A stretch of DNA of 32,000 nucleotides from Firmicutes bacterium ADurb.Bin153 (GTDB lineage: Bacteria; Bacillota; DTU025; MWDF01), in the NCBI GenBank assembly GCA_002070415.1, contig MWDF01000003.1:25960-57959 (forward strand), read 5' to 3'. A model generated the notes under the pieces. The model saw only the letters and a list, made by a program, of their open reading frames with translations, was not told where the DNA came from and searched no databases. Below, piece by piece: positions 1 to 16,726 of this stretch. The position numbers and the translations under genes were made by a program. The first letter of the stretch is position 1. Each line of letters starts with the position of its first letter.

Positions 1-820
1 TGGCGATCGGGTACTCGGCCCTGACGTAGATGTAGCCGTAGCGCGCGCCGATGGCATAGCCTGCGATGGCCATGCCCTCTATCACCTTGTGCGGGTCGCC
101 TTCCATGACGGCCCTGTCCATGAACGCCCCCGGGTCGCCCTCGTCGCCGTTGCAGACCATGTACTTTACGTCGTTGACCTGCGCCGCTGCGAAACCCCAC
201 TTCCTGCCCGTGGGGAAGCCTCCGCCGCCTCTTCCTCTGAGGCCCGATTCGAGTACGGTGTCTATGACCTGCTGGGGTGTCAACGAGGTGAGGCACTTCG
301 CCAGAGCGGCATAGCCGCCGTTGGCTATATATTCCCTGAGGTCCTCGGCGTTGATCCTGCCGGAACCGGCCAGGGCCACCTTTATCTGCTTCTTGTAGAA
401 AGGTATCTCGCACTCGTGGGTAATCGGCTTGCCCGTCTTGGGGTCCTTGTAGAGGAGCCTTTCGATGACCTGTCCGCCGACGAGGGTCTTTTCCACTATC
501 TCGGATGCGTCCTCGGGCTTTACGTGGCAGTACGTAATCGCGCCGGGTTCGATTCTCACCAGCGGCCCGATGTCGCAGAAGCCGTGGCATCCCGTCTTAA
601 TCGCGTTGACCGATTTCTCGTCCACTTTCTCGTCGTCCAGGACCGCGTTGATGCCGCGCTTGTCGAGCTCCGCCTTCAGGGCGTCGTAGACTTCGATCCC
701 GCCCGAGAGTATGCATCCGGGCCCTACGCACACGAAGACGCGCTTCCCGAAGGAGGACAGCTTCGACAGGTATCTCTCCCTGAGCTCCGAAAGCTGCTTT
801 TCGCTAGTCACCCTGCTCAT
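1..820 (-). CDS. NuoF/HydB(HndC)-type NADH-binding FMN/Fe-S flavoprotein subunit, 5' part only (gene continues beyond window start)
   Basis: Own translation of the minus strand from ATG 820..818: MSRVTSEKQLSELRERYLSKLSSFGKRVFVCVGPGCILSGG...CHGFCDIGP...GLRGRGGGGFPTGRKW...VCNGDEGDPGAFMDR. This is an N-terminal thioredoxin-like 2Fe-2S segment followed by NuoF glycine-rich NADH/FMN motifs. SD AAGAGGAGGG sits 6 nt upstream. There is an ATGA start/stop overlap with the upstream nuoE-like gene. It is absent from the ORF track because there is no stop in the window. Confidence 0.85.
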   Translation of the reverse strand, partial: MSRVTSEKQLSELRERYLSKLSSFGKRVFVCVGPGCILSGGIEVYDALKAELDKRGINAVLDDEKVDEKSVNAIKTGCHGFCDIGPLVRIEPGAITYCHVKPEDASEIVEKTLVGGQVIERLLYKDPKTGKPITHECEIPFYKKQIKVALAGSGRINAEDLREYIANGGYAALAKCLTSLTPQQVIDTVLESGLRGRGGGGFPTGRKWGFAAAQVNDVKYMVCNGDEGDPGAFMDRAVMEGDPHKVIEGMAIAGYAIGARYGYIYVRAEYPIA

Positions 821-1314
821 ACCAATCCCTCCTCTTTCAGAAGGGCATCGATGATGATCTCGGCCGCTTCGGCCGTCATCTGCCCGTATACTTTGTCGTT
901 GACCATGAGCACGGGCGCGAGCCCGCACGCTCCCAGGCAGGCTACGGTCTCGACCGTGAACCTGAGGTCGGACGTCGTGAACTTCCCTTCCTTGAGGCCG
1001 ATCTTCTTGATGATGGCGTCGTAGACCGGCATCGAACCCCTGACATGGCACGCGGTACCGTCGCATACCCTTACCACGTACTTGCCCTTGGGCTCAAGGG
1101 AGAACTGCGCGTAGAAGGTCGCCACGCCGAACACGGTGGCGGCCGGTATGCCGAGCGCTGTCGCGATGTAGGTTAGGATTTCCTCAGGCAGGTACCTGTA
1201 CTCGGTCTGTACCGCCTGGAGGATCGGTATAAGCGCGCTCTGACTTTTACCGTTTTTCTCGATGATGCCATTGATCTTCTCGAATTTCCGCGCTGAGCTA
1301 AGATCCTGGGTCAT
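817..1314 (-). CDS. NuoE/HydC(HndA)-type thioredoxin-like [2Fe-2S] subunit
   Basis: 165-aa ORF. Contains ...LIPILQAVQTEYRYLP..., VRVCDGTACHVRG and ETVACLGACGLAPV, the NuoE four-Cys pattern. Translationally coupled to the nuoF-like gene. Confidence 0.85.
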   Translation of the reverse strand: MTQDLSSARKFEKINGIIEKNGKSQSALIPILQAVQTEYRYLPEEILTYIATALGIPAATVFGVATFYAQFSLEPKGKYVVRVCDGTACHVRGSMPVYDAIIKKIGLKEGKFTTSDLRFTVETVACLGACGLAPVLMVNDKVYGQMTAEAAEIIIDALLKEEGLV

Positions 1315-1339
1315 TTCGGCATTAACCTCCTTGGGTTGA

Positions 1340-2509
1340 TTAGTAGTAAGTTACGCTGACGTCTTTACCTAACGCCCTCATCATCCTGATGACGGCGTCC
1401 ACAGCCTGGCTCTTGAACCTGTAATCCACGAGTGACGCTGCGTCGGTGTGGGCCACGTTCTTGGCCCTGCCGACGAAGAAATCCAACCTGTCCGCATCCA
1501 GCAGCGCCTTAGCCAAAAGCGATGCCGCGTCCCGCCCTGTCATCCCGGCCTTCGTCATCTCGCCGGCATCCACGGCGCCCAGTTTGTCCAGGGCGCTCGT
1601 CAGGGTTATTATCCCCTCGGTCACCATGTCCACGCCCTTCATCTTCGCCATGGGAGGAATCCCGTCCCCCCCGGTGCCGAGGTCTATCTCCATCTCCGCG
1701 CCGAGCTCCCTTGCGAAGAGGTTCCCCGTCGTCCCTCCGCAGATTATCTTCCTGCCCGGCCTTGCCATGAACTTCCTTACGAGTTCCGCGTCCAGTTCCT
1801 TCCTGCTGGGCGGCCCTATGGCCACCGATGTCATCCTGGGCTGCCTTGCAGCTATGCACACCACCGTCGTGTCGTCGCCGGGCTTGCCCCCGTAGAACTG
1901 GTCGCACACTCCCGTAAGCCACTTAGAGAGCTGCGCGCTGTCGCCCCTCGCCTTCGGAACGGTCTTCCTTATGTACTCCGCCACGTTCTCCCATTGCCAG
2001 CCGAGGTTTAGCACATCCCCGAGGCCTGCGTGTATCACCCCGTCAGAGACCATGAACAGATGGTCCCCGTCTTTGACCTCGAAGCTGCCTTCCAGGACTT
2101 CTTTCTCGGCCACCTTGCGCTTCTTCGTGCTGATCTTCGTGACCGTGCCTTCCCTATAAAGGAAGATGTCCGGAGTGTCGTACTCCACGATGTTACCGAC
2201 GCCTCCCTCCGAGAGCCTCACTATGGAGAACGTCGAGTAGGCCACTCCCCTTACCTGGCATATCGGAAGGGTCCTACCTATCGTGTCGACGACGTCTTCT
2301 ATGCCCGAGCCTTCCTTGAGCATGTAAGTGGCGATCCTCGTCGTCAGCGTCGAGAGCACGTTTGCCTTGATGCCAGATCCGAGGCCGTCGGACAGCACGG
2401 CCATTATCGAACCCGAGGCTTTGACTATCTCGACCCTGTCTCCGCAGATCGTCTCGCCATGCTTGCACAAGGACGAGTATGAGGCCTCGTAGTACAGGCC
2501 GGAGCTCAT
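1340..2509 (-). CDS. SpoIIE/PP2C-family serine phosphatase with an extra C-terminal domain of about 160 aa
   Basis: 389-aa ORF. Contains ICGDRVEI...AVLSDGLGSGIKA...FMVSDGVIHAG...GDDTTVV, the PP2C/SpoIIE metal-binding Asp motifs. Its ATG overlaps the stop of the hydS-like gene (ATGA at 2509..2506). It ends 25 nt upstream of the nuoE-like start. Confidence 0.8.
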   Translation of the reverse strand: MSSGLYYEASYSSLCKHGETICGDRVEIVKASGSIMAVLSDGLGSGIKANVLSTLTTRIATYMLKEGSGIEDVVDTIGRTLPICQVRGVAYSTFSIVRLSEGGVGNIVEYDTPDIFLYREGTVTKISTKKRKVAEKEVLEGSFEVKDGDHLFMVSDGVIHAGLGDVLNLGWQWENVAEYIRKTVPKARGDSAQLSKWLTGVCDQFYGGKPGDDTTVVCIAARQPRMTSVAIGPPSRKELDAELVRKFMARPGRKIICGGTTGNLFARELGAEMEIDLGTGGDGIPPMAKMKGVDMVTEGIITLTSALDKLGAVDAGEMTKAGMTGRDAASLLAKALLDADRLDFFVGRAKNVAHTDAASLVDYRFKSQAVDAVIRMMRALGKDVSVTYY

Positions 2510-4185
2510 TCCTCCGAACCCTCCTCGAGCTGCTTCATAAGCCTGGAGAGCAGTACTTTAGTCTCGGCGGCGGCCTCTCCCATGAGGCCTGCCACCTGCT
2601 GGGCGACCCTCATCTGGTTCTCTATGACCCTTCCTGCCCTTTCGGCGGTCTCCCGCCTTTCCTTGACAAGGGCCTCCTTGTCCTTGAACTCGCGGCTCAG
2701 GTCGGATACTATCAGCACCACCATGTCCTTCGACTGCAGGTGCATGTAGGCTTCCTTCGCCCTTTCAAGGCCGCAGTTGCCGTTCGTATGCCTGATAACG
2801 GTCGTCTTGGTCTCGAATACGGTCTTGAAGGGCTCCTTTTCGAAGATGTCCGGGATCGGCCTGCCGACCATGGATTCCGCGGACAGCCCGGTTATGCGGC
2901 AGATCGCAGGGTTGGTGAGCACGACCGTCATGTCGCTCCTGACGCCCAGTATGCCGTTGGGGGACTCGTTAACCACGAGGTTGCCCATGGCTTCGGCGCC
3001 CGATTTCATGAACGGCATGCACATCTCCGGTTCCGCGAGTCCCCTGGTGACCGCGATCGCAAGGTCGCGGCACGTGTAGTAGCCGCAGGCCCCGCAGTCG
3101 GTGCGGTCGTCCTTGGATCCCCTGCCGATCTTCGAGAGCACCTTGGTTATCATCGCCTCGGGAGGTTCCGGTTTCCTGACGTCCTTCGATGAATAGACCG
3201 CCGAAGTGTCGAAGAGCTCGATTTCCTCACCGTTCGCGCTTGCGGCGTGCCGCAGGCTGGCTTTCATGAGGCTCATGCGGCCGGCCTTCCCCTTCGTGCC
3301 CGACGGTCCGCACAGCGAGCAGTCCACGCAGGCCGCAAGGTCCAGCAGCGAGAAGTCCGAGTAGTCGTCCATGTGGCCCAGAGCGTGCATGGACCCCTCT
3401 ATCCCAAGGACCGATATCTCACCTGCGTACTGCCCGCCTTTTACTACCTGCCCGTCTTCCGGCGCCTCGTCTTCTTCCGTGACGTGGCACTCGTCCTCCA
3501 ACTCAACCTCGGGGCAATCTTTTATGGAGAAGCCCTTCTTGTCGAATATGGAGGCCAGCTCGCCGAACGTGAGTACGGAGTCCACGAGTCCCCTGTATTC
3601 CTGCCTTTCGACCTCACCCTTTGAGGCGATGCAAGGTCCGGCGTAAACTATATAGCAGCTCTGGCCGAGCTTATTCCTCAGCTTCCGCGCCTGTGCGACC
3701 ATGGGGGTCGCTACTTGGGCCAGGTTCTCCAGTTTTTCCGGGTAGTATCTTTCGATGAGGTTGACTATGACGGGGCAGTATGACGCTATGACGGGTTTCT
3801 TCGCGGATGTCCCGGCGGACTCCAGGTGGGCCCTTACCGTCGCGGCGGATGCCTTGGCGGTGCTTGAGACATGCGTGAACCCCAGCTTCCTGGCCGCCCC
3901 GGCCACCCTGGCAGGGTCGATTCCGGGGAACGAGGACCTGAACGCGTGGTGCAGTATGAGGGCCGAGGTGGCGCCCGACGCCAACCTTGCCATGACGGGG
4001 CCCCTGTCATCCCTTACGACCTTTGCGGCCTGGGGGCACACTATCGCGCATTCGGCGCATGCGATACAGAGCTCATCCTCGATCTCGGTGTGGCCCCCGG
4101 ACGCTTTGATCGCCTTTACGGGGCAGTACCGTATGCACTTGTAGCAGTCCCTGCAATTCGAAGGGACGCTTTGAATCGCAGGCAT
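2506..4185 (-). CDS. Sensory [FeFe]-hydrogenase-like protein (HydS/HfsB type): 2x[4Fe-4S] ferredoxin domain, H-cluster-like domain, Cx2Cx4Cx16C motif, PAS domain, C-terminal coiled-coil tail
   Basis: 559-aa ORF. CRDCYKCIRYCP and CIACAECAIVCP are two 4Fe-4S motifs. SYCPVIV stands in place of TSCCPxW. GPCIASKGE resembles MPCxxKxxE. AACVDCSLCGP is present. DCGACGYYTCRDLAIAVTRGLAEPEMC equals Cx2Cx4Cx16C. A PAS-like segment follows: NGILGVRSDMTVVLTNPAICRITGLSAESMVGRPI. Confidence 0.75.
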   Translation of the reverse strand: MPAIQSVPSNCRDCYKCIRYCPVKAIKASGGHTEIEDELCIACAECAIVCPQAAKVVRDDRGPVMARLASGATSALILHHAFRSSFPGIDPARVAGAARKLGFTHVSSTAKASAATVRAHLESAGTSAKKPVIASYCPVIVNLIERYYPEKLENLAQVATPMVAQARKLRNKLGQSCYIVYAGPCIASKGEVERQEYRGLVDSVLTFGELASIFDKKGFSIKDCPEVELEDECHVTEEDEAPEDGQVVKGGQYAGEISVLGIEGSMHALGHMDDYSDFSLLDLAACVDCSLCGPSGTKGKAGRMSLMKASLRHAASANGEEIELFDTSAVYSSKDVRKPEPPEAMITKVLSKIGRGSKDDRTDCGACGYYTCRDLAIAVTRGLAEPEMCMPFMKSGAEAMGNLVVNESPNGILGVRSDMTVVLTNPAICRITGLSAESMVGRPIPDIFEKEPFKTVFETKTTVIRHTNGNCGLERAKEAYMHLQSKDMVVLIVSDLSREFKDKEALVKERRETAERAGRVIENQMRVAQQVAGLMGEAAAETKVLLSRLMKQLEEGSEE

Positions 4186-4191
4186 GGGCTT

Positions 4192-4434
4192 TCACTCCCC
4201 CATAATCAACTTCCTGAACTGGACTTCGGCCTCGTCCGGGTCCAACCCGTTAAGGACCGTCCCGTCCAGTTCGACGGAAACACCGCAGGAGCAGTTCTTC
4301 ATACAAAAGCATCCCTTCAGTACAACGTCGCACTGAAGGGCGTTCTCTTCGATGAGCCTCTTATACCTTTCGATCACATCTGGGGCGCCTTTGATGTTGC
4401 AGGCACTTCCGACGCACACTTTAACGGTCTTCAT
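4192..4434 (-). CDS. Small thioredoxin-like (2Fe-2S) ferredoxin-domain protein, first gene of the hydS operon
   Basis: 80-aa ORF MKTVKVCVGSACNIKGAPDVIERY...CFCMKNCSCGVSVELDG. The Cys spacing and fold signature resemble NuoE-like 2Fe-2S proteins. GGAG lies 9 nt upstream. Its stop is 6 nt before the hydS-like start. Confidence 0.6.
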   Translation of the reverse strand: MKTVKVCVGSACNIKGAPDVIERYKRLIEENALQCDVVLKGCFCMKNCSCGVSVELDGTVLNGLDPDEAEVQFRKLIMGE

Positions 4435-4464: not shown

Positions 4465-4494
4465 AGTATATCTGTTTTGTACCTCCCTTCACAA
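4465..4494 (-). promoter_or_regulatory. Candidate sigma70-type promoter of the hydS operon (TTGTGA-18-TATACT)
   Basis: The minus strand reads ...tattaTTGTGAagggaggtacaaaacagaTATACTtaacgagtaagatactgtGGAGaatgaacaATG, inside the only AT-rich gap of this region. Confidence 0.35.
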
Positions 4495-4526
4495 TAATAC
4501 GACTGTCTTATTTTCAGTACCGCAAA

Positions 4527-4552
4527 GGCGCACCGCTTTTCCGCGGTGCGCC
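4527..4552 (-). terminator. GC-rich hairpin downstream of darA, a likely intrinsic terminator with a weak U-tract
   Basis: Perfect 10-bp stem GGCGCACCGC/GCGGTGCGCC with a 6-nt loop. On the minus strand it is followed by TTTGCGG. It lies 31 nt after the darA stop. Confidence 0.45.
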
Positions 4553-4582
4553 TCTCCAGCATTTGATAAGTAATTATCAATT

Positions 4583-4909
4583 TCAGACCTTTATGAAACT
4601 TTCAACGTCCATCACGAAAACCGTCGCACCGCCATGCGCCACTTTCACCGGCGGAGGGACGAACCCTCCTTGCGAAGGTATCGGCACACCAAGCGACATG
4701 TACTCCTGTCTGGTTTTGCAGCAGTCCTTTATCATCATGAGCACTTCTTCGACCTTTGCGTCCTCTACGCCCATAAGGAGGGTAGTATTCCCAAGTTTCA
4801 GGAACCCGCCGCTGCTTGCCACCTTGGTGAACATGTAGCCCGCATCCGTAAGGGTCTCGTTGAGTACCCTCATCGTATCGTCCCTGACTATCGCAAGAAT
4901 GAGCTTCAT
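4583..4909 (-). CDS. darA: PII-like cyclic-di-AMP receptor protein (DarA/PstA, DUF970 family)
   Basis: MKLILAIVRDD...TKVASSGGFLKLGNTTLLMGVED...HGGATVFVMDVESF matches the DarA/PstA hallmarks (TGGFLxxGNTT, GGATVFV). Start chosen at ATG 4909 with SD GAGGAGGA 8 nt upstream. The tracked ORF start at 4996 adds an Arg-rich extension that overlaps the MFS gene. Confidence 0.8.
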   Translation of the reverse strand: MKLILAIVRDDTMRVLNETLTDAGYMFTKVASSGGFLKLGNTTLLMGVEDAKVEEVLMMIKDCCKTRQEYMSLGVPIPSQGGFVPPPVKVAHGGATVFVMDVESFIKV

Positions 4910-4931
4910 CTGCCCTTCCTCCTCATCAGCA

Positions 4932-6296
4932 TCAGCTTCGGTCCTCGGCCCTCTTGCTTCCTTTCGTCGTTGTCTGTTTCGACTCGAGCTTGCCAAATAC
5001 CTTCCCCATTATCTTGGAAGGCTCAAAAACCGCGAGGAATACGGCCCAGCCGAACACCCTTATTATCGTCGAAACGAGGAACGTTGGCCCTATCCCCTTC
5101 GCCACCATAAGTGGTCCTCCGATCAGGGACCCTATCGTGCCGGAGAGGAATATGACGGTGTTGGTGACGGCTATGCCGTTTGGCCGCTCGTTCTCGTCCA
5201 CGTACTCGAGCCCCAGGTTGAACATCGAAAGGTTGTAGCCAGCCACGCCGAAGCCCAGTATGGCCTGCCAGGCGAACATCATCCCCAGGTCCTTCCCCGA
5301 AAGGTAGTAGAAGTAGGGGAACAGCGCCTGCCATATCGTCGAATAGGCGAAGACTATCGCGTTGCCCCTTTTCCTCGACAGCCTCCCCCAGAAAGGCGAG
5401 GTCAGCACCACGAACAGGGTTCCTGCGGTGTTAAGCAGGCTTATCATCGATTTGGAAAGTCCCAGCTCCCTGACGTAGAACATCGGAAAGGCGGGGGCCG
5501 ACAGGTATATACCCAGGTTGTACAGGAAAAGGCCCGCCGAGAAGTAGGCGAAACGCCTCCCCAGCTTTTCATCCCTGAACGGCATCGCCAGCCTCTTGAA
5601 CACCGATATGCTCCTCGCCTCGGCCTTCGGAGATGGCACCTCCCTGATGTGCTGCAGCGCGTATATCGAGAGCATGCCGGTGACACCGGATATCGCAAAG
5701 ATCGCGACGTAGCCCCACTCACCGGGGAGCCAGTCAATGAGGTATCCAGCAGCGATAGTGCCCATCACCGCCGCCAGGTTCGCGAGCGCGTTCCTCCTTG
5801 AGAAGACGGCGCCCCACTCGTTTTGCGGGAAGGACACTCCCATCATGTCGGTCCATACGATCAGGTACAGCACCGAGGGCACCGCCTGCAGCGCGTTCAG
5901 CCCTATTACAAGGTCTGCCTTCCAGCCCTGGGGCATGAACGGTATGAAGGCCATCGCTAGGAATACCGCCCTTGTGAGATACCCCGACAGCAACACCAGC
6001 TTCTTGACGCTCTTGCTGCGCTCGGCCACCCCCGCGAAGGGCAGGAACAGGAGGGTGTTCACCAGGGAGGGAAGCAGGTTGACCATGGATATGCCTATAG
6101 CGTTCGCGCCGTATGTGAGCGCCATGATCGATATGAAGGGCGGAACCATGCCCGCAGAGACATAGGCGAGCACACCGTCGGTGACCGCCCATTTATAATT
6201 GTGCCGGAGGTTCTTCCTCTTCAGGATCTCTGGCGTCATCGCCTGCGCGTCCTCCGGCACGGTCCCGTCTTTGGTTGTCCCCTTCAATAGTCCCAT
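4932..6296 (-). CDS. MFS-type transporter, substrate unknown
   Basis: 454-aa ORF, highly hydrophobic with about 12 predicted helices by eye. A cytoplasmic loop RLSRKRGN resembles the MFS RxxxR/K loop. The start is uncertain: ATG 6239 has a better SD (GGAGGA) than ATG 6296. Confidence 0.8.
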   Translation of the reverse strand: MGLLKGTTKDGTVPEDAQAMTPEILKRKNLRHNYKWAVTDGVLAYVSAGMVPPFISIMALTYGANAIGISMVNLLPSLVNTLLFLPFAGVAERSKSVKKLVLLSGYLTRAVFLAMAFIPFMPQGWKADLVIGLNALQAVPSVLYLIVWTDMMGVSFPQNEWGAVFSRRNALANLAAVMGTIAAGYLIDWLPGEWGYVAIFAISGVTGMLSIYALQHIREVPSPKAEARSISVFKRLAMPFRDEKLGRRFAYFSAGLFLYNLGIYLSAPAFPMFYVRELGLSKSMISLLNTAGTLFVVLTSPFWGRLSRKRGNAIVFAYSTIWQALFPYFYYLSGKDLGMMFAWQAILGFGVAGYNLSMFNLGLEYVDENERPNGIAVTNTVIFLSGTIGSLIGGPLMVAKGIGPTFLVSTIIRVFGWAVFLAVFEPSKIMGKVFGKLESKQTTTKGSKRAEDRS

Positions 6297-8334: not shown

Positions 8335-8952
8335 CTAGTATTCTATCCCTCTCCTGGCCCCTATCCCCTTGTCGAAGGGATGCTTGACGAGCTTCATCTC
8401 GGTGACCAGGTCCGCTATCGCGACTATCTCCTCGGGCACGTCCCTGCCGGTGATTATGACCTCTACTCCCTTGGCCCTGGATCCGACCAGCTTCACGCAG
8501 TCTTCCACGGTCAGCAGGTCGTATCGTACGGCGTTGGTGAGTTCGTCCAGCACGACCACGTCCGCCTCGGCGTTCTTCAGCGTCCTTAGCGCCAGCACGT
8601 ACGCTTCAGCCGCCAGCTCCAGGTCCGTGCGCGTTACGTTGCCCCGCGTCACGAAGCACTCCATGCACATGTCGCACTTCGCCGCGCCCTCCTTGATCCG
8701 GTCCTGTATCCTGCAGCCCCTGCCGAACTGGTATATCTCGAGCTCCGGTGCCAACTTCTCCGCCGCGTACAGTTCGCCGTAGTAGGTCGAGCCCTTCATG
8801 AACTGTATCACCCTGACGGTGAAGCCGTGTCCTACGGCCCTCATCGCAAGGCCGAGGGCCGCCGTCGTCTTGCCCTTGCCGTTGCCAGTGTAGACCTGGA
8901 CCAGAGCGTCTTCGATCCTTCCGCTGCAGTTTTTCAAGGAAGCTGCCCCCAC
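8335..8952 (-). CDS. cobO: Cob(I)yrinic acid a,c-diamide / cob(I)alamin adenosyltransferase (CobA/CobO/BtuR family)
   Basis: P-loop VYTGNGKGKTTAALGLAMRAVGHG, VVLDELT, and C-terminal TEMKLVKHPFDKGIGARRGIEY, typical of the BtuR/CobO family. Confidence 0.85.
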   Translation of the reverse strand: MGAASLKNCSGRIEDALVQVYTGNGKGKTTAALGLAMRAVGHGFTVRVIQFMKGSTYYGELYAAEKLAPELEIYQFGRGCRIQDRIKEGAAKCDMCMECFVTRGNVTRTDLELAAEAYVLALRTLKNAEADVVVLDELTNAVRYDLLTVEDCVKLVGSRAKGVEVIITGRDVPEEIVAIADLVTEMKLVKHPFDKGIGARRGIEY

Positions 8953-9110: not shown

Positions 9111-9896
9111 TTATGGCTTCGAGCTGGGAGTAAGCATCACGATACCGGGCCTTGACGTCTCCGGGTTGTTCTTGACGACGGCCCGTACGCCGTAGATCTC
9201 CAGTATGTTGTCCGCCGTCAGCACGTCATCCGGCAGGCCCTCGGACACCACGCGGCCTTCCTTCAGCGCTATCAGCCTGTCGCAGTACAGGCCCGCGAGG
9301 TTGAGGTCGTGCATCACGATGATCACCGTGGTGCCCGAAGACGCAAGGCCCTTCAGGATCTCCATGATCTCCAGCTGGTAGGAAATGTCTAGATGCGACG
9401 TGGGCTCGTCGAGCAGCATAACCTTGGGCTCCTGCGCCAGCGCCCTAGCTATGAACACCCTTTGCCGCTCGCCCGATGAGAGCGCGGTTATCTGCCTTCC
9501 CTTAAGATCCCGTACCCCGGCCATGCGCATCGCATCGCAGACCGCCTCGGTGTCACGGCGTCCGGACCTGCCCAGCAGCCCGTTGTAGGGGAACCTGCCC
9601 ATCTCGACGACGTCCCCCACGGTGAAGGCGAACTGAGCGCCCGGGTCCTGAAGGACGGCGCCTATCAGCCTGGCCCTGCCCATGGGCGGCATGGACGAGA
9701 TGTCAGCCCCGTCGTACAGCACCCTTCCCGAGGCCGGCCTCACCACGTGGCCCAGTATCCTAAGCAGCGTGCTCTTGCCGGAGCCGTTGGGCCCTATTAT
9801 CCCCGTCAGGCTGCCGGACGGCACCGAGGCCGTCACTTCCGTAAGGGCAGCCTTGGCACCGTAGGAATAGCATATCCTCTCCATGCGCACTTTCAT
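9111..9896 (-). CDS. ABC transporter ATP-binding protein, FepC/BtuD (iron-siderophore/cobalamin) type
   Basis: Walker A GPNGSGKSTLL, signature LSSGERQRV, Walker B MLLDEPTSHLD. ATGA overlap with the permease stop (9896..9893). Confidence 0.9.
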   Translation of the reverse strand: MKVRMERICYSYGAKAALTEVTASVPSGSLTGIIGPNGSGKSTLLRILGHVVRPASGRVLYDGADISSMPPMGRARLIGAVLQDPGAQFAFTVGDVVEMGRFPYNGLLGRSGRRDTEAVCDAMRMAGVRDLKGRQITALSSGERQRVFIARALAQEPKVMLLDEPTSHLDISYQLEIMEILKGLASSGTTVIIVMHDLNLAGLYCDRLIALKEGRVVSEGLPDDVLTADNILEIYGVRAVVKNNPETSRPGIVMLTPSSKP

Positions 9897-10945
9897 CTTC
9901 CGGGCTTCCCCTCCTTCCTCGACCTCCTGAGGAGGTAGAAGAAGAACGGCGCGCCGACGAGCGCCGTCACCGTACCCACGGGCAGCTCGGCCGGGGAGAT
10001 CACGGTGCGTGCCACCGTATCCGCCGCGACTAGCAGCGCGCCTCCGGCCAGGGCCGATACGGGTATCAGAGCCCTATGGTCGGGACCCGTCATGTACCTC
10101 GCCATGTGGGGCACTATCAGCCCGACGAAACCGATTATCCCGGACACGCCGACTGCGGCCGACGTGGCCAGCGAGCAGGCCACTATCACGGCCTTCTTGA
10201 AGCCCTCGACGCCCAGGCCCATGAAGCGGGCCTGCTCCTCGCCCATCGATATCACGTTCAAGCCTCTGGACATGATCATCAGCGCCGCGATGCCCAATGC
10301 TATATAGGGGGCGGACATGGCGAAATGGCCCCAGTTGCGGGCCGAGAGCGAGCCCATCAGCCACATCATGACCTTGGGCAGGTCCTCGCCGGCCGCCAGC
10401 ATCGTAAATGAGACGAGCGCCCAGATGAAGGAGCCCACCACGACTCCTGACAGAAGAAGGCTCTCGGATTGTATCTTGCCTTTTATCTGTGCCAGCGCCA
10501 TCACAAGCACCATGGAGGCGACGGCTCCGGCGAAAGCGAAGAGCGGTATGGTGCCGCCGAACGCCGCCATGCTCCCGGACGTGAGCACTATTCCTATGCT
10601 CGCCCCGAGCGCCGCGCCGGACGAGACGCCAATTATGTACGGGTCGGCCAGCGGATTGCCCAGCAGCCCCTGGTAACACGCTCCGGCGGCGCCGAGCGCT
10701 GCGCCCGCGGCGAAGCCAAGCATGATCCTCGGGAGCCTGACCTTCATTATTATCGCTTCGTACGCGGGGTCGGCGCCGGCTATGCCAAGGGCCGTACGTA
10801 TGCTTCCGGGAAGGCAGCCCGCCACAGACCTCAGCGTCTCGGCGACAGGCACGCCCACCGTCCCCACCGAGGCCGAGACCATAAGGACGGCCACGGAAAC
10901 GACCAGCACCGCTATTAGTGAGCCCGCGGCCCTTCTCCTTGGCAT
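9893..10945 (-). CDS. FecCD/BtuC-family ABC permease
   Basis: 350-aa polytopic ORF with RLPRIMLGFAAGAALGAAGACYQGLLGNPLADPYIIGVSSGAALG, the FecCD family signature region. Confidence 0.9.
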   Translation of the reverse strand: MPRRRAAGSLIAVLVVSVAVLMVSASVGTVGVPVAETLRSVAGCLPGSIRTALGIAGADPAYEAIIMKVRLPRIMLGFAAGAALGAAGACYQGLLGNPLADPYIIGVSSGAALGASIGIVLTSGSMAAFGGTIPLFAFAGAVASMVLVMALAQIKGKIQSESLLLSGVVVGSFIWALVSFTMLAAGEDLPKVMMWLMGSLSARNWGHFAMSAPYIALGIAALMIMSRGLNVISMGEEQARFMGLGVEGFKKAVIVACSLATSAAVGVSGIIGFVGLIVPHMARYMTGPDHRALIPVSALAGGALLVAADTVARTVISPAELPVGTVTALVGAPFFFYLLRRSRKEGKPGR

Positions 10946-10964
10946 CTTCGACCACCTCGCGAGA

Positions 10965-11849
10965 TTACTTGAACAACTCCGGATGTAGCAACCTGGCGAG
11001 CTCCTCCAGTCCGTCGACCAGCCTCGGCCCCGACCTCACCAGAAGGTCCGGGTTCGCCTCGACGACCCTTCCCGACCTTACTGCTGACAGGTCCGACCAG
11101 GCCTTCCTCGAGAGGACCTCAGCCTTGTTGTAGTTCGTGAGCACTATCAGGTAGGGGTCCTCCTTGATGACGGTCTCTTGGCTGAACACGGGCCAGCCCG
11201 TCACGCCCTCAGCTATGTTCCTGCCGCCGGCGAGTCTTACCAGCTCGTCCACGTACGTGCCCTTGCCAGCGGTCATAAGGGGTTCGTTCCATATCTCCAC
11301 GAACACGGACGGCCTGCTCTTCGCCTTGGCCGCCAGGTCCTGGACCTTCCGGATCCTGGACGAGAGCGAAGCCGCGAGGGCATCCGCCTCGGCTTCCCTG
11401 CCGCCTACCTTGCCCAGCAGCTTGAGCGCTTCGAGCATCTCGGAGACGTTGTCGGCCTTTATGGCGAGCACTTTCACCCCGAGCTCTCTGATCTTCGATA
11501 TGGTGTTGCCGCTCATGCTCGTGTCCGCCACCACCAGGTCCGGCCTCTTCGCGAGCACCGCCTCGATGTTTATGTTCACGTCCCCTACTTTGTCGACCTT
11601 CTTGGCCTCCTCCGGATAGGTGCACCATGCGGTCACCCCGACGAGCCTGTCGCCTAGGCCCACCGCGTAGAGCATCTCCGTCACGCTGGGAACTATGCTC
11701 ACTATCCTCCTTGGTTCTTCCTTTATCGTCACTTCGGTCCCCGTGGCGTCCTTCACCGACAGGGGATAGCCCGCGCTCCTTGCGGCCCCGGACGCGAACG
11801 TCGACAGCAGCAGCACCGCTATCATCGCAAGTATAGTCGATCTTCTCAT
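10965..11849 (-). CDS. Periplasmic/lipid-anchored substrate-binding protein, BtuF-like (cobalamin/siderophore class)
   Basis: Start chosen at ATG 11849 (MRRSTILAMIAVLLLSTFASGAA signal peptide) with SD AAGGAGG 8 nt upstream. Contains RIVSIVPSVTEMLYAVGLGDRLVGVT...PDLVVAD, typical of this class. The tracked start at 11969 lies inside the riboswitch. Confidence 0.85.
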   Translation of the reverse strand: MRRSTILAMIAVLLLSTFASGAARSAGYPLSVKDATGTEVTIKEEPRRIVSIVPSVTEMLYAVGLGDRLVGVTAWCTYPEEAKKVDKVGDVNINIEAVLAKRPDLVVADTSMSGNTISKIRELGVKVLAIKADNVSEMLEALKLLGKVGGREAEADALAASLSSRIRKVQDLAAKAKSRPSVFVEIWNEPLMTAGKGTYVDELVRLAGGRNIAEGVTGWPVFSQETVIKEDPYLIVLTNYNKAEVLSRKAWSDLSAVRSGRVVEANPDLLVRSGPRLVDGLEELARLLHPELFK

Positions 11850-11889
11850 CTGCACTACCTCCTTAGTATAGGACGGTAGTGACTTGCAA

Positions 11890-12190
11890 GCCCTGAAAGA
11901 TGAAAGCCCGCTCACCTTTCGGTGAACGGGCTCAGTAGACCAATTAGGCCTGCATCCCCCTTTTTCCACGAAGGCGGAACAGCTACTTGCACGGGCAGGT
12001 CTCCTGGCTTGCGACCTTTGTTGGCGCTGCCCTTGCCTTCCCGGCTTCTTGCCAGTGGCTCGGGCTTTTCCGGTCGCGTACAGTGGCGGGACCGCGGGCT
12101 TGCCGGAGACCGTTCTTCATATCTCCCCGGTGCCTCTTCCCTATTATCCCCACGCGGTGGGGCACCCATGCAGGTTATGCAGTTGTCACT
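11890..12190 (-). promoter_or_regulatory. Cobalamin (B12) riboswitch with terminator-type expression platform
   Basis: The minus strand contains GGTGCCCCACCGCGTGGGGATAATAGGGAAGAGGCACCGGGGAGA...GGTCCCGCCACTGTA...AAGCCAGGAGACCTGCCCGTGC. The last element is the B12 box (12016..11990). A 12-bp stem follows, AGCCCGTTCACC-GAAA-GGTGAGCGGGCT (11932..11905), then TTCATCTTTC, ahead of the btuF-like SD. Confidence 0.85.
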
Positions 12191-12262: not shown

Positions 12263-14179
12263 TCACCGTGCCTTCCCGCCGCCTTCCCTGAACCTTCTGA
12301 AATCCCCGCTCCTTTGCGTGAGTTCCAAAGCGTCCATCCACTCCAGGAGCGCTATGGCGTATTTCCTCGACGTCCCCAGGGCGTCTCTGAGCATCGCGGC
12401 CGTGAACTGCCCCTCGAAGCTTGAGGCCGCCTTTACGGCCATCCCTATCGCATCCTTGTGGAAGGTGATCTCTGAGGAGGCCTTTACCAATATGCCCTCT
12501 CCTACGAGGTAATCCGCGATCGGGCCTATGCCTTCTTTCGACGCCTTTATGACCTCTTCCAGGTCCGGCGGCGCCAGCAGGCCCTCCTTGAAGGAGGCCT
12601 CGAGCGCCCTTGCCGCGGCCAGTTGCTTCTCGCTTAGCCTTACCTCGTGCGAGGTAAGCCTTACTAGTTCGCCTGACTGCGTTATGCGCCCTTCTGCGGC
12701 CTCACGCTCCAACAGCGCTCCGGCCTGTTTCTTGTCGAGCCAGGGCATCGCCTTCTGCCTGGCCTCCTCTTTGGGCATCCCCTTCCTCAGAGGATGTTCC
12801 AGATGGTACGACGAAAGCGCCGCCTGGAGGCCGTCTGCCAAGAAGCCGTACGAGGCGGCGTCCATGAAGTGGCGCACGCCCTCTGCCTTAAGCTCCACAA
12901 GTGCGCCTTCCCCGACGGCCTTGGCCGACGCGGCAGCGAAGGCCTCCTCGCTCATGTAGGCTTGTCTCCTCAGGGCCCGCTCCTCCATGGGAAGGGCCTG
13001 CGCCCCCTTCGCCCTCGCGCCGGATCTTACAAGTTCTGCCAGCACGACGGCGATATCGGCCGAGGCGAGCTTTGCGATCGACACCGCCTCTTCTTCGGAG
13101 CCCACCTTGCGCCTCGGGGGGGACGCCATTACCACGCGCCCTCCTGCCAGAGTCGCCTGTGGCGAATAGGACCTGAGGATGAAACGGTCGCCCCGCGCGG
13201 GGCAGATCCTCTCCTCGACGTCCAGCTGGATGAAAGCGGTGTCCCCCTGCGGCTGCTTCGGCACCCTGGCCCTTGCTATAGCCTCGACGGTTCCTATGTG
13301 TAGCCTTAGCCTTTCGTTGTGCTCTATCGCAGGCGAGCCTTTCAGCATCCTTAGCTCGGCGTCAATCAGGGACGTGGGGGCAAGCCAGCCCTCCGACGCG
13401 AGGGCCATGCCCCTTTCGACCTCATCCCTGTCTATGCCAGCCAGGTTTAGGGCCACGCGCTGGCCGCGTACGGCCTGCGGCACCTGTTCGTCGTGCACTT
13501 CGACCTTCTTAACCCTGACCGTCCTACCGGGCGGGAGAAGCTCCAGCCTGTCGCCTTCCGCGACGGGCCCGCCCAGGAGCGTGCCGGTCACCACGGTACC
13601 CTGCCCCGTCATGGAGAATGACCTGTCGACGTAGAGGCGGGAGGCCGGCTCGGCGGACCTTTCGCGCGCCTTGGACGAGACTGCGTCCAGCTCGGCCGCA
13701 AGCTTAGCGACGCCTTCGCCCGTGACAGAGGATACCGGCACTATCGGCGCCGCTTCGAGGCTCGTTCCCTCAAGGCGCCCGCGGACTTCCTCTACGACCA
13801 TCTCAAGCCAGTCCTTCTCCACCAGGTCCGCCTTCGTGACCGCCACCACGCCCTTGCTTATCCCGAGCAGCTCGAGGATCTCGAGGTGCTCTTCCGTCTG
13901 CCGCATTATCCCCTCGTCCGCCGCAACCACGAGCAGGGCCACGTCCACGCCGCCGGCGCCGGCCGCCATGTGCTTTATGAACTTCTCGTGCCCGGGCATG
14001 TCGACGACGCCGAGCACCAGTCCGGAAGGCAGGGCGAGGTGGGTGAAACCGAGCTCTATCGTCATGCCGCGCGCCTTCTCCTCGGGAAGGCGGTCCGTAT
14101 CCGTTCCCGTAAGGGCCTTTATCAGCGAGGTCTTGCCGTGGTCGACGTGCCCCGCGGTGCCGAGTATGAGGTGTTTCAT
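12263..14179 (-). CDS. selB: Selenocysteine-specific translation elongation factor SelB
   Basis: 638 aa. N-terminal GTPase MKHLILGTAGHVDHGKTSLIKALTG...DMPGHEKF...TKADL, then a long winged-helix C-terminal extension. ATGA overlap with the selA stop. Confidence 0.95.
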   Translation of the reverse strand: MKHLILGTAGHVDHGKTSLIKALTGTDTDRLPEEKARGMTIELGFTHLALPSGLVLGVVDMPGHEKFIKHMAAGAGGVDVALLVVAADEGIMRQTEEHLEILELLGISKGVVAVTKADLVEKDWLEMVVEEVRGRLEGTSLEAAPIVPVSSVTGEGVAKLAAELDAVSSKARERSAEPASRLYVDRSFSMTGQGTVVTGTLLGGPVAEGDRLELLPPGRTVRVKKVEVHDEQVPQAVRGQRVALNLAGIDRDEVERGMALASEGWLAPTSLIDAELRMLKGSPAIEHNERLRLHIGTVEAIARARVPKQPQGDTAFIQLDVEERICPARGDRFILRSYSPQATLAGGRVVMASPPRRKVGSEEEAVSIAKLASADIAVVLAELVRSGARAKGAQALPMEERALRRQAYMSEEAFAAASAKAVGEGALVELKAEGVRHFMDAASYGFLADGLQAALSSYHLEHPLRKGMPKEEARQKAMPWLDKKQAGALLEREAAEGRITQSGELVRLTSHEVRLSEKQLAAARALEASFKEGLLAPPDLEEVIKASKEGIGPIADYLVGEGILVKASSEITFHKDAIGMAVKAASSFEGQFTAAMLRDALGTSRKYAIALLEWMDALELTQRSGDFRRFREGGGKAR

Positions 14180-15612
14180 CTGTCAGTGTCCTTCATGAAC
14201 GCGCGCGCTATAGCGTCCGCAAGGACAGCAAGCTCGGCGTCCCTGACTGTCCTGAGCGAGAAGAGCATCCCTCCCGCCCGCTCCAGCGCGACTACCGCAG
14301 GCCTTGCCTCCCTAAGGGCGCCGGAAGCTTCGGACGCCTTTACGTCAGACGAGCTCACATGCACTCCGGCGCCTTTGAGCTCGGCTCCGGGCAGTGAGCC
14401 CCCGCCTACCTCGTCAAGGGTCTCCACCGGCCGGAATGAGATGCGCCCGGCGGCGGAAGTACTACCGGTCCTCTCTTTTATCATCGAGCAGAGCATTACG
14501 GCCCTCGACATAATTTCCTCGAACGGCTCTCTGAGCATGGCAACCGTCGGGATGTCGCACGCCGAGTCCTCCGATTCGTACTGGGCCAGGGTGGCGGCCA
14601 GGGCCGCTATCCTCATCTTGTCGACCCTGAAGGCCCTAGCGAGCGGCGAGCGGGATATCTTCGACACTAGATCCGCCTTCCCCGCTATGATGCCGCATTG
14701 GGGCCCTCCGAGCAGCTTGTCCCCCGAGAAGGTCACCACGTCGGCGCCTTGCTCGATCGCGGCCTTCGGAGAAGGTTCCGGAGGCAGGCCGAACGCTTGA
14801 ACGTTCGCAAGGCACCCGGAGCCCACGTCGAATATGAACGGGATCCTGTGCTTCCTGGCGATTTCGGACAGTTCCCTTACGCCGACTTCGGACGTGAAGC
14901 CCGTGATCTTGAAATTGGAGGGATGTACCTTAAGTATCGCGACTGCGCCCTCAGACGCCGCCTTCTCGTAGTCCGAGACCCTGGTCCTGTTCGTAGTCCC
15001 GACTTCCATAAGCACGGCGCCGGTCACCGACATTATGTCCGGCACCCTGAATGAGCCGCCTATCTCGACGAGCTCGCCCCTGGATACCGCAACTTTCCCG
15101 CCCTTGGCCAGCGCGTCCAGGCAAAGCAGCACCGCCGCCGCGTTATTGTTGACGACGATGGCGGATTCCGCACCAGTGATCGAAGCCGCGAGCCCGCCGA
15201 TGTGGGCCTGCCTCGAGCCCCTCCTGCCTTGTACCAGGTCGTACTCGAGGTCGTTGTATCCTTCTGCCGCCTCGACCGCCGCTCTTATCGCAATGCTTGA
15301 CAGGGGCGCCCTCCCCAGGTTCGTGTGGAGCACCACTCCGGTCGCGTTTATCACCCTCACGAGCCCCGGTACGCTGGATCCCAGTCTCTCTTCCGCCGCA
15401 GCCAGGGCGTATGATGCCGCAGCCTGCCTGTCGGGCTTGCCGGCGCCGGCGTCCCTTAAGGACGCTATGGCGGTACGCAGCTGCTTTACGGTAGCCGCCC
15501 TGCCGTACGTTAGGCAAAGTCTCCTGCCCTCGTCCGATCCGATCAGGGAATCTATCGACGGCAGGACGCTCGACGCATCCTTCTTCGAAGAAGCCATCTC
15601 CTCACCTCTCAT
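14176..15612 (-). CDS. selA: L-seryl-tRNA(Sec) selenium transferase SelA
   Basis: 478 aa. Contains ...VINATGVVLHTNLGRAPL... and TFSGDKLLGGPQCGIIAGK (PLP-lysine region), diagnostic for SelA. The alternative start at ATG 15597 is equally plausible. Confidence 0.95.
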   Translation of the reverse strand: MRGEEMASSKKDASSVLPSIDSLIGSDEGRRLCLTYGRAATVKQLRTAIASLRDAGAGKPDRQAAASYALAAAEERLGSSVPGLVRVINATGVVLHTNLGRAPLSSIAIRAAVEAAEGYNDLEYDLVQGRRGSRQAHIGGLAASITGAESAIVVNNNAAAVLLCLDALAKGGKVAVSRGELVEIGGSFRVPDIMSVTGAVLMEVGTTNRTRVSDYEKAASEGAVAILKVHPSNFKITGFTSEVGVRELSEIARKHRIPFIFDVGSGCLANVQAFGLPPEPSPKAAIEQGADVVTFSGDKLLGGPQCGIIAGKADLVSKISRSPLARAFRVDKMRIAALAATLAQYESEDSACDIPTVAMLREPFEEIMSRAVMLCSMIKERTGSTSAAGRISFRPVETLDEVGGGSLPGAELKGAGVHVSSSDVKASEASGALREARPAVVALERAGGMLFSLRTVRDAELAVLADAIARAFMKDTDR

Positions 15613-15667
15613 GGCGCGATGCGCGGTAAAAAGGAATATCAGCCGCAGCCCGGCTGCCTCTGACGCG

Positions 15668-16726
15668 CTAAGGCCTTCTGAACCGTGCCCTTATCATGCG
15701 ATCCGAGCGCGGGATCATCCTCCCTATGACGCTGTGCATGCATCCGCCGGCCTCCAGGCCCTGCACGAGCGCTCCCAGGGCCTGCTCGGGAATCGCGACA
15801 AGCAGGCCGCCCGACGTCTGGGGGTCGAACATCAGCGACGCCACCGACATCGGCACACCGGCGTCCACTTCGACCTTGTCCGCCAGCCAGGAGCGGTTCC
15901 TGGCTGCGCCGCCGGGAAGGAAGCCCTCCTCTGCGAGCCTTGCCGCCCCAGGCAGAAGCGGCACATCCTCCAGCCATACCTCGGCCGAGGTCCCAGAAGC
16001 TTCCGCCATCTCGAATAGGTGGCCGAAGAATCCGAATCCGGTGATGTCGGTGGCGGCCCTCGCCCCCGCTTCCACCATCGCCTCGGACGCTGCCCTGTTA
16101 AGCGCCAGCATGGAAAGCCTTGCCGCTTCTGCCGACTCCTCGGGGCACATCTCGTTCTTTATCGCGGTCGATATGACCCCCGTGCCTATCGCCTTCGTGA
16201 GCACCAGCATGTCATTCGGCCTCGCGTTGGAGTTCGCCGTTATCCTCGACTTTTCCACGATGCCTGTCACCGAGAGGCCGAACTTGAGGTCCTCGTCCTC
16301 TACTGTGTGCCCGCCGGCCACGACCGCGCCCGCTTCGTTCACCTTCTCGGCGCCGCCTTTCACTATCGCCCCGAGCACCTCCTCGCCCAGATCCCTGGGG
16401 AAGCAGGCTATGTTGAGCGCTATCACCGGCCTTGCGCCCATGGCGTATATGTCGGACAGCGCGTTGGACGCGGCGATGGCGCCGAAATCGTACGGATCGT
16501 CAACTATGGGCGTGAAGAAGTCCACCGTCTGGACTATGGCGATGTCCCCGCCCAGGCTGTACACGGCGGCATCGTCGTAGGTGGCCGTGCCCACGATGAG
16601 GTTCTCGGCTACCTGCGGCGGTATGTGGCTCATTATCCTATGAAGGTCCGCCGGACCCATCTTGGCCGCTCAGCCGGCCTTCGACGATATCGCGGTAAGC
16701 CTTTTCACGGTCTTGGTCCCATCCAT
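15668..16726 (-). CDS. selD: Selenide, water dikinase SelD, Sec-containing form (in-frame UGA at 16672..16670)
   Basis: The tracked ORF (15668..16660) extends in frame through one TGA to ATG 16726, which has SD AAGGAGGAG 5 nt upstream. This gives MDGTKTVKRLTAISSKAG-U-AAKMGPADL.... The UGA aligns to the catalytic Cys of the GAGCGCK loop with Lys at +3. The rest (DDAAVYSL...VDFFTPIVDDPYDFGAIAASNALSDIYAMGARP) is canonical SelD. Confidence 0.9.
16645..16672 (-). other. UGA-Sec codon plus candidate bacterial SECIS hairpin inside selD
   Basis: UGA at 16672..16670. Twelve nt downstream is the stem-loop GGUCC-GGC-GGACC (16657..16645), extendable with G.U and A-U pairs. The apical loop contains G residues, as in bacterial SECIS elements. 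Confidence 0.5.

Follow-up and report, generated by a model that had tools for sequence, protein, structure and literature searches.

We asked what kind of signal could be read by a sensory-type [FeFe]-hydrogenase that is encoded beside a phosphatase and beside no kinase. The question is raised by positions 1-4434 of a 32,000-nucleotide stretch of Firmicutes bacterium ADurb.Bin153 DNA (contig MWDF01000003.1, positions 25,960 to 57,959; the whole stretch is called the window, and its numbering is used for all gene coordinates), where a HydS-type hydrogenase and a PP2C phosphatase are encoded on the minus strand together with hydrogenase subunits. A preliminary description, made from the sequence alone, had taken this locus for an H2- or redox-sensing module that controls the hydrogenase it is transcribed with. 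Our own reading, to which we give a probability of roughly 0.6, is that it is a group C3 or hfsABC-type cassette placed ahead of a bifurcating HydABC hydrogenase, that HydS would act on the coupled PP2C, and that the HydS of this lineage would have lost direct H2 sensing and would work through its Fe-S clusters or as a scaffold. The system itself is already known. What is new here is that the H-cluster pocket has degenerated in this lineage, in a module that is otherwise conserved and under selection. The way in which putative sensory [FeFe]-hydrogenases transmit their signal is an open question in the field, with an output partner demonstrated for none of them, and it is not settled by the locus described here. 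Reviews, and a study from 2026, continue to treat the mechanism as unknown (PMC11376134, PMC13104023), in agreement with the preliminary description, which had called the signalling output poorly defined.

Five open reading frames (ORFs) are packed tightly in this region, and ORF calls verified the genes, coordinates, ATGA overlaps and 25-nt gap that had been described:

4192..4434, minus strand: hfsA-like small thioredoxin-like [2Fe-2S] ferredoxin, 80 amino acids (aa), cassette gene 1 (weak Pfam match to 2Fe-2S_thioredx, 7.7e-4)
2506..4185, minus strand: HydS/HfsB-type [FeFe]-hydrogenase-like PAS protein, 559 aa (from Pfam, the AlphaFold2 (AF2) model and Foldseek)
1340-2509, minus strand: PP2C/SpoIIE-family phosphatase, 389 aa (Pfam SpoIIE 2e-13)
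817..1314, minus strand: HydC, the NuoE-like [2Fe-2S] subunit, 165 aa (Pfam 2Fe-2S_thioredx 3.4e-52)
1..820, minus strand: HydB (NuoF-like), N-terminal 273 residues, truncated by the window edge (Complex1_51K 6.4e-28)

The 4-nt overlaps join the HydS stop to the PP2C start (2506-2509) and HydC to HydB (817-820), and the 25-nt gap separates PP2C from the NuoE-like gene. An identical NuoE protein is found on many contigs, from two metagenome-assembled genomes (MAGs) and several digester metagenomes. We took the extent of the operon from six independent contigs, including two MAGs. On the identical contigs the complete operon consists of the hfsA-like gene, HydS, PP2C, HydC, HydB (627 aa) and HydA (673 aa), with SpoIID, a Germane-domain protein and DegV 3' of hydA. 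The preliminary description had proposed looking past coordinate 1 for hydA, and it is found there, directly after hydB (outside the window, on the identical contig L001). The operon has six genes and belongs to an uncultured member of the Bacillota from anaerobic digesters; its 5' two-thirds are in the window. The features of a HydABC hydrogenase are all found: a NuoE-like HydC, which scores above the cut-off of the NCBIfam NuoE model (146.5 vs 141), a NuoF-like HydB with a flavin mononucleotide/NADH module, and a HydA with canonical H-cluster motifs (TSCCP, MPCTAKKFE and EVMACPGGCIGGGGQ) that matches the NCBIfam model 'NADH-dependent [FeFe] hydrogenase, group A6' at 811 bits (cut-off 765). 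HydCBA is accordingly of the predicted electron-bifurcating HydABC type (group A3, NCBI 'A6').

The H-cluster pocket of HydS

HydS is a group C-type (PAS-bearing, M2f) [FeFe]-hydrogenase-like protein. Its Pfam matches are to Fe_hyd_lg_C (1.7e-32), FeS (PF04060, 1.6e-9), PAS (2.4e-7) and Fer4. The AF2 model has a predicted local distance difference test score (pLDDT) of 84, and among solved structures Foldseek pairs it with [FeFe]-hydrogenases (best E 1.3e-17; HydA and CpI at 1e-17 to 1e-12). From the N-terminus, the protein is made up of the following parts:

4024..4164, minus strand: N-terminal 2x[4Fe-4S] ferredoxin-like domain, residues 8-54 (Pfam Fer4)
3286..4005, minus strand: H-domain, residues 61-300, with the fold kept and the pocket remodelled
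3019..3096, minus strand: C-terminal Cx2Cx4Cx16C [4Fe-4S] motif, residues 364-389 (PF04060)
2761..2982, minus strand: PAS domain, residues 402-475 (Pfam PAS; beta-sheet core in the AF2 model)
2518..2697, minus strand: long C-terminal helix, residues 497-556, 60 residues (AF2 model)

Both N-terminal CxxCxxCxxxCP motifs are complete (C11-C21 and C40-C50), and all four cysteines of the Cx2Cx4Cx16C motif, which is known from M2e and M2f enzymes (PMC8163306), are invariant across 52 sequences. The PAS domain that had been described from the sequence is borne out by the Pfam match, and the model has a long helix where a coiled-coil tail had been described. This helix carries a highly conserved QMRVAQ..AGLxGE..AETKV segment and is probably a dimerisation or partner interface.

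To describe the pocket we scored 15 signature positions in 193 HydS-type sequences, with the operon's own HydA as the CpI-numbered reference. In 150 of the 193 homologues there is no deviation at any of these positions, and in 24 there is one. The window HydS deviates at seven of the 15, the last two of them within the variant L3 motif given in the final line:

A230 and P231: His and His in the window; Ala in 181/193 and Pro in 179/193
K358: Ser in the window; Lys in 182/193
F417: Ala in the window; Phe or Tyr in 181/193
G422: Gln in the window; Gly in 180/193
G502: Cys in the window; Gly or Ser in 185/193
C503: Ser in the window; Cys in 183/193
3298..3336, minus strand: variant L3 motif AACVDCSLCGPSG, with Cx2C in place of the family CxGGC and Ser at bridging Cys503

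Many of these changes fall on the residues that hold the [2Fe] subcluster: A230-P231-S232, K358, F417, G421-G422 and G502 read HHA, Ser, Ala, G-Q and Cys, so that LHHAF stands where the family has LAPSF. Each of these residues is conserved in 160-182 of the 193 sequences. In L3 the window HydS has CVDC (Cx2C) where the family has C-x-G-G-C (Cx3C), and the Ser at position 503 is flanked by cysteines at -1 and +2. The preliminary description had stated that cluster-ligand-type motifs are kept. The strings it listed (SYCP, GPCIASKGE, CVDCSLCGP and Cx2Cx4Cx16C) are indeed all present, but they are not all canonical, as CVDC is a Cx2C and GPCIASKGE has Ser at the otherwise invariant Lys358 position. 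It had also named non-conserved H-cluster cysteines as a sign of a non-hydrogenase Fe-S protein, and this is partly what we found: three of the four cysteines hold the canonical register (C137, C185 and C286, equivalent to C300, C355 and C499). E361 and P301/P354 are kept as well. Cys299 and Met353 are absent, with Tyr136 aligning with C299, the proton-relay site at which a Tyr had already been noticed, and Gly183 at position 353. In the family, position 299 is Ala in 70, Cys in 61, Ser in 51 and Tyr in 6 sequences, and position 353 is Gly in 183 of the 193.

We rejected an alignment artefact as the cause of these differences: MAFFT alignments of 14, 15 and 194 sequences, made independently, agree on them, and the AF2 model is of low confidence just where the loops have changed (pLDDT <50 over residues 238-252, which form the F417 loop, and over residues 291-302, which follow L3). 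We also rejected an error of sequencing or assembly, the identical protein being present on at least 10 contigs from several sources. The degenerate state is common to the window HydS and four homologues (P0122, P0129, P0130 and P0131); all five keep the Cx2C, and they differ from one another at the remaining pocket positions.

In work on CpI and CrHydA1 by Knörzer et al. in 2012, replacement of Lys358 reportedly abolished cofactor insertion. From the pocket substitutions taken together with that mutagenesis, we infer that the window HydS probably does not bind the [2Fe] subcluster, that a [4Fe-4S] cluster may sit at the remodelled site, and that direct sensing of H2 is doubtful. All ligands of the accessory clusters are retained. 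Fe-S-based redox sensing, or a role as a phosphatase scaffold, is more likely. Sensory enzymes are described as conserving the cysteines and the [2Fe]-cofactor-holding residues (PMC10055695), and the window HydS departs from this rule.

Comparison with better-known proteins places the departure in the pocket. Group C/M2f sensors such as Thermotoga maritima HydS have the same order of 2x[4Fe-4S], H-domain, Cx2Cx4Cx16C and PAS (PMC8163306, PMC5037454, PMC11406978), likewise lack the Cys299 relay, have Gly for M353, and have a PP2C neighbour and an adjacent group A bifurcating hydrogenase. T. maritima HydS keeps all H-cluster ligands and [2Fe]-holding residues, whereas the window protein has K358S, APS changed to HHA, F417A, GG changed to DC, and Cx2C. 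The group D (M2e) HydS of Thermoanaerobacter mathranii shares the N-terminal clusters, the Cx2Cx4Cx16C motif, the missing proton pathway and a site upstream of HydABC (PMC8163306).

We next compared rates of change along HydS. Between the window HydS and its nearest intact relatives (P0123-P0128), identity is 68-72% over the C-terminal Fe-S/PAS/helix region and only 41-43% over the H-domain, the second value being 0.60-0.63 of the first. In 1107 pairs of intact HydS proteins matched for C-terminal identity, the mean identity of the H-domain is 60%, and no pair has a ratio below 0.69. One of the loci with an intact HydS (L092, which encodes P0128) is syntenic with the window gene for gene, with identities of 55% for HydS, 69% for hfsA, 76% for PP2C, 76% for HydB, 79% for HydA and 88% for HydC, making HydS the least conserved hyd gene of the block. 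Ratios of nonsynonymous to synonymous substitution rates (dN/dS), computed against the closer relative L091, are 0.11 for the H-domain, 0.25 for the linker, 0.02 for Fer4 and 0.06 for the C-terminal region (0.10 for HydS overall), and 0.03 for PP2C, 0.03 for HydA and 0.04 for hfsA. Constraint on the H-domain is therefore relaxed about 4-5-fold, yet the domain is not neutral; it is under purifying selection.

These rates bear on whether the cassette is a decaying relic, its function lost and its HydS turning into a pseudogene. In line with such decay, no gene of the operon evolves faster than HydS, and the pocket residues of HydS drift within the sub-clade. The low dN/dS of HydS as a whole, of its Fer4 and C-terminal modules (0.02-0.06), of PP2C and of hfsA largely refutes the idea, however; the HydS ORF also has its full length and the same sequence in at least 10 contigs that come from different samples, and the degenerate state is shared by lineages whose identity is only 54-88%. 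We consider decay very improbable.

The same evidence can be turned to the reading in which HydS is a canonical H2 sensor: the window protein would assemble a working, if unusual, H-cluster and report H2 partial pressure to PP2C, as is proposed for the HydS proteins of T. maritima and R. albus. The equivalents of C300, C355 and C499 are in place with a fourth cysteine one residue off the canonical site, E361 and P301/P354 are retained, and the H-domain keeps its fold under purifying selection. Sensory hydrogenases tolerate changes at C299, M353 and M497 (PMC8163306, PMC10055695), and the catalytic HydA of the operon implies that the HydEFG maturases are available. Set against this are the seven changes among 15 positions that 150-174 of the 193 homologues keep invariant or nearly so. 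They affect F417, the GG turn, the backbone motif APS, the register of the bridging Cys and the Lys that hydrogen-bonds a cyanide ligand. Also set against it is the reported conservation of [2Fe]-holding residues in sensory enzymes (PMC10055695). Moreover, the pocket differs among the five members of the sub-clade in a way that resembles drift more than a new defined site, and the divergence of the H-domain lies outside the range of all intact pairs. The assignment to a group-C-type HydS stands, then, but the H2-sensor reading is weakened by a pocket with three of four cysteines in register and its [2Fe]-holding residues replaced, and we judge it unlikely.

A protein that has given up the [2Fe] subcluster while keeping the fold would have a parallel. 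The eukaryotic Nar1/NARF proteins have the H-domain fold and Cys ligands for Fe-S clusters but no [2Fe] subcluster, and by analogy they may illustrate what the window HydS has become. They differ in belonging to an unrelated lineage, in acting in cytosolic Fe-S assembly, and in having neither a PAS domain nor a phosphatase partner.

A second, independent loss of the pocket was seen in cassette HydS proteins of Desulfomonilaceae, Syntrophaceae and 'delta proteobacterium' MAGs (L044, L047, L058, L073, L074 and L090). In these six loci the H-cluster cysteines are lost too and 11-13 of the 15 signature positions are changed (C300E, C355P and K358Q among them), while HfsA and PP2C are kept. A 288-306-aa ORF follows PP2C in four of the six (L047, L058, L074 and L090); a Pfam scan of its L090 representative gave no match.

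A phosphatase cassette without a linked kinase

The second question is what HydS would act upon. The phosphatase has two parts:

1841..2509, minus strand: PP2C/SpoIIE catalytic domain, residues 1-223 (Pfam SpoIIE 2e-13 over residues 33-220 only; aligned to the SpoIIE structure 3t91)
1343..1840, minus strand: C-terminal alpha/beta domain, residues 224-389, 166 residues (invariant GPP, CGG(T), PP, TEG, GxAxN and K)

The metal-binding Asp motifs (GD24, SD41GLGSG, SD156G and D212D213) are intact and invariant in 47 homologues, the dN/dS of the catalytic domain is 0.02, and the active site is intact. The C-terminal domain is modelled confidently (pLDDT 89.7) and has a dN/dS of 0.04. No Pfam family covers residues ~224-389. 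Among PDB structures the domain has no significant fold relative (best E 9e-3, with template modelling scores of 0.3-0.48, to UbiX and methylglyoxal synthase), and a profile search of the PDB gave nothing significant either (best E 0.3, a SIS-domain isomerase). The domain of about 160 aa that the preliminary description had singled out is thus real and outside Pfam, but it is not specific to this locus. An exhaustive search found it in 760 clusters at 50% identity, with almost all matches at residues ~224-390 of proteins of ~385 aa and the shorter ones resembling fragments, and the full-length phosphatase that carries it has thousands of homologues of 380-398 aa and is present in at least 598 species representatives. 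The domain is thus common to the HfsC family as a whole, conserved but still uncharacterised. No fusion of HydS to PP2C was seen among the top matches of two homologue searches.

Within this domain, the near-invariant NPAHQNPxLP (residues 351-361) is NVAHTDAASLV in the window and its close relatives. Among those relatives is P0007, the PP2C that shares a contig with the intact HydS P0128 (L092), and the change therefore predates the loss of the HydS pocket.

To see how the cassette is arranged elsewhere, we surveyed 80 species-level loci that carry the phosphatase, all with full-length phosphatase coverage, by calling their ORFs and classifying them against the window proteins. HydS lies directly upstream of PP2C in 79 of the 80, and the order of small 2Fe-2S protein, HydS and PP2C is found in 64, with the hfsA-like gene at position -2 from PP2C. 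Its Cx4C...Cx3C ligands are kept across 69 homologues of the hfsA-like protein and align with those of NuoE. In 44 of 79 loci the end of the HydS gene and the start of the PP2C gene overlap by 4 nt or 1 nt; translational coupling of the two is therefore a conserved feature. What stands next to the cassette varies: HydC-HydB-HydA follows in exactly the window order in 13 of the 80, HydCBA lies upstream in another 13, a monomeric B1-type hydrogenase lies downstream in 19, and a divergent HydABC is present in four. In 31 loci no hydrogenase is in view, some of these being cut by contig ends.

This variety bears on the idea that HydS and the small 2Fe-2S protein are an extra electron-transfer subunit of HydABC (the 'BfuT' view), with PP2C acting on a hydrogenase subunit and so controlling post-translationally the enzyme it is transcribed with, a possibility that the preliminary description had raised. 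The single tightly packed operon with its translational coupling would suit such a role, as would the up to four Fe-S cluster sites kept by HydS, the published inclusion of the group C3 gene in bfu gene clusters (PMC11406978), and the lack of any other substrate encoded nearby in the window or the extended contigs. Yet the cassette adjoins a monomeric hydrogenase in 19 loci, follows HydABC or diverges from it in 17, and has no hydrogenase in view in 31, some of which are cut by contig ends. The solved HydABC complexes of T. maritima, T. kivui and A. woodii are named HydA/B/C only, a PAS domain and long helix are typical of signalling proteins, and in T. thermosaccharolyticum hfsD is enough to restore the phenotype when hfsA-C are absent (PMC11837493). 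We regard an accessory-subunit role as rather improbable.

The preliminary description had called the absence of a kinase or STAS partner unusual, and the survey contradicts this. Pfam scans of the operon-contiguous unknown ORFs in the 80 loci found no RsbW-type kinase and no STAS protein, and neither a kinase nor a STAS protein was found across the 32-kb window or on the identical contigs past coordinate 1, where nuoF is followed by hydA and then spoIID, not by the kinase/STAS pair that had been considered. The sole kinase-like exception is a 276-aa APH/Pkinase-like ORF (L059:2724-3551) between PP2C and the hydrogenase in a Eubacteriaceae MAG, and tblastn found no homologue of it in the other loci or the window. 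A linked kinase, STAS protein or transcription factor for the window cassette was thus sought in the window, the extended contigs and the 80 loci and by tblastn, and none was found. hfsA-HydS-PP2C is a widespread self-contained three-gene regulatory cassette in which the absence of a kinase is normal.

The same conclusion is reached from characterised relatives. In Thermoanaerobacterium, hfsABCD encodes a small HfsA, HfsB with a PAS domain, the serine phosphatase HfsC and the hydrogenase HfsD, with no kinase in the operon (PMC11837493). The first three genes of the T. saccharolyticum and T. thermosaccharolyticum operons are in the same order as in the window, and the cassette stands upstream of the hydrogenase it is thought to regulate. 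The differences are that hfsABCD has a monomeric B1-type hydrogenase (HfsD) after the cassette where the window has a trimeric NuoE/NuoF-type HydCBA, and that the degenerate HydS pocket is a feature of the window. Through its PP2C homologue we also found a locus of Caloranaerobacter that is laid out exactly as hfsABCD. HydDB group C3 is labelled 'phosphatase-linked (putative)' (PMC5037454), and the window locus has the co-transcribed Ser/Thr (PP2C) phosphatase of that group, with the PP2C start overlapping the HydS stop, a match by gene context. Group C3 genes adjoining A3 hydrogenases have been noted in other phyla (PMC11406978). The partner-switching phosphatases RsbU and SpoIIE share the PPM catalytic fold and metal-binding Asp motifs, and SpoIIE structures are the best solved relatives. 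Their additional domains are N-terminal, whereas the regulatory domain of the window PP2C is C-terminal and unrelated, and RsbU/RsbV/RsbW systems have a linked RsbW-type kinase and STAS substrate where the window and 79 of 80 related loci have none.

Two kinds of neighbouring gene recur in the survey. A TnpB-like protein of 460-530 aa with a Cas12f1-like TNB zinc ribbon follows the phosphatase in nine of 80 species (directly in L026, L028, L029, L031, L032, L040, L045 and L060, and at +3 in L068) and is absent from the window. Pairwise identities are 24-67%. The protein has lost the Asp of RuvC-I (GVSRG), and Gln mostly replaces the Glu of RuvC-II. It resembles a nuclease-dead, TldR-like domesticated TnpB and could be an output regulator in those species. 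The other is BLAST cluster c2, whose 10 ORFs lie at most a few genes from the cassette, in 10 of 80 loci (for instance L025:16969-19572, and ~16977 in L024); its L025 representative is AdhE, the bifunctional acetaldehyde-CoA/alcohol dehydrogenase (NCBIfam, 1376 bits). An adhE gene near the cassette fits the reported regulatory link between hfsB and adhE (PMC5707799).

Proposed mechanism and upstream control

T. saccharolyticum strains deleted for hfsA or hfsB express more adhE and yield more ethanol, provided that both hfsC and hfsD are intact (PMC5707799), and their hydrogenase activity is altered (PMC5707799, PMC11837493). These effects, which depend on hfsC and hfsD, suggest a mechanism in which HydS would exchange electrons, in either direction, with the small 2Fe-2S protein and would change conformation through its C-terminal [4Fe-4S]/PAS/helix module. 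This conformation would control the activity of bound PP2C, which would dephosphorylate a phosphoprotein encoded elsewhere and so tune the expression or activity of hydrogenase and fermentation genes. The HydS of the window lineage would act as a sensor of redox state or electron flux through its Fe-S clusters, or as a constitutive phosphatase partner, without sensing H2 directly. Transcription of the operon would probably also be under Rex (NADH/NAD+) control. The upstream region has two candidate elements:

4563..4580, no strand assigned: perfect 18-bp palindrome TTGATAAgtaaTTATCAA, candidate Rex operator (TTGnnAA-N4-TTnnCAA), 129 nt upstream of the hfsA-like ATG
4465..4494, minus strand: candidate sigma-70-like promoter TTGTGA-18-TATACT, weak, with 9/12 consensus matches, a count no higher than in shuffles

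The palindrome is the sole match to a relaxed Rex-type pattern in the 32-kb window, where 0.01 were expected. Perfect Rex-type palindromes are rare (8 in 1.33 Mb of related loci), and they occur just upstream of hfsA in L012, L024 and L025, 284 nt upstream in L060, with the same TTGATAA half-site, and before adhE in L024 and L025. A rex gene lies directly after hydA in several relatives with ~50% identical PP2C (for example L008:13617-14261); in the window lineage and its sister L092 no rex follows hydA, and a spacer of 126-163 nt precedes spoIID (L001:14414-14577, L092:16199-16325). The published Rex consensus is TTGTGAANNNNTTCACAA (PMC6391272). Altogether, these observations are a lead towards Rex control of operon transcription, short of proof.

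Several points weigh against the reading given at the outset. Loss of [2Fe] binding is deduced from sequence, and the three canonical cysteines with a shifted fourth may be compatible with a non-canonical H-cluster. The H-domain is still under purifying selection, and so it does something. Direct contact between HydS and PP2C, and the existence of a separate substrate, are read from gene order alone, and the T. saccharolyticum phenotypes come from a cassette with a monomeric hydrogenase and presumably an intact HydS. As to Rex, the pattern was widened after the site had been seen, the site differs from the consensus at two positions per half-site, a terminator-like hairpin stands downstream of it, and the predicted -35 is ~70 nt away.

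The survey reveals a fixed three-gene phosphatase-linked unit without a linked kinase, a phosphatase with a conserved C-terminal domain outside Pfam and solved structures, and an H-cluster pocket given up in at least two lineages with the rest of the module kept. Because the pocket has been lost in at least two lineages, 'H2 sensor' should not be assumed when group C hydrogenases are annotated in metagenomes. Only tentatively do we go further and suggest that HydS would be naturally H2-blind in the window lineage and, independently, in the Desulfomonilaceae-like group, still selected, still coupled to PP2C and still part of a hydrogenase operon. On that view the conserved function of the cassette would be redox or electron-flux sensing through accessory Fe-S clusters, or phosphatase scaffolding, and not the binding of H2 at the H-cluster, and the intact and degenerate orthologues of L092 and the window would be a natural experiment on signalling by 'sensory' hydrogenases.

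Neighbouring features of the window

The Rex-like palindrome is separated from the promoter-like site by a GC-rich hairpin (~4520-4550). Rfam has no match in the operon leader, and we therefore rejected a riboswitch or other leader RNA at that place. The gene that adjoins the operon upstream (4583-4996, minus strand) encodes a cyclic-di-AMP receptor (PF06153), and its position is conserved in L008, L091 and L092.

Farther along the window, an aldehyde:ferredoxin oxidoreductase gene (AFOR_N/AFOR_C; 27401-30005, minus strand) adjoins a poly-ferredoxin and a ThiS/MoaD-like ORF; its longest ORF overlaps the ThiS-like one, and the start codons are tentative. A cobalamin riboswitch (81 bits; 11977-12184, minus strand) lies upstream of a Peripla_BP_2/FecCD/ABC transporter operon (9111-11969), near which a CobA/CobO-type corrinoid adenosyltransferase is encoded (8335-8952). 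Selenocysteine machinery is encoded at 12263-16660 on the minus strand (SelB, SelA and a SelD-like AIRS protein), and a tRNA-Sec gene (76 bits) is found at 19156-19246 on the same strand.

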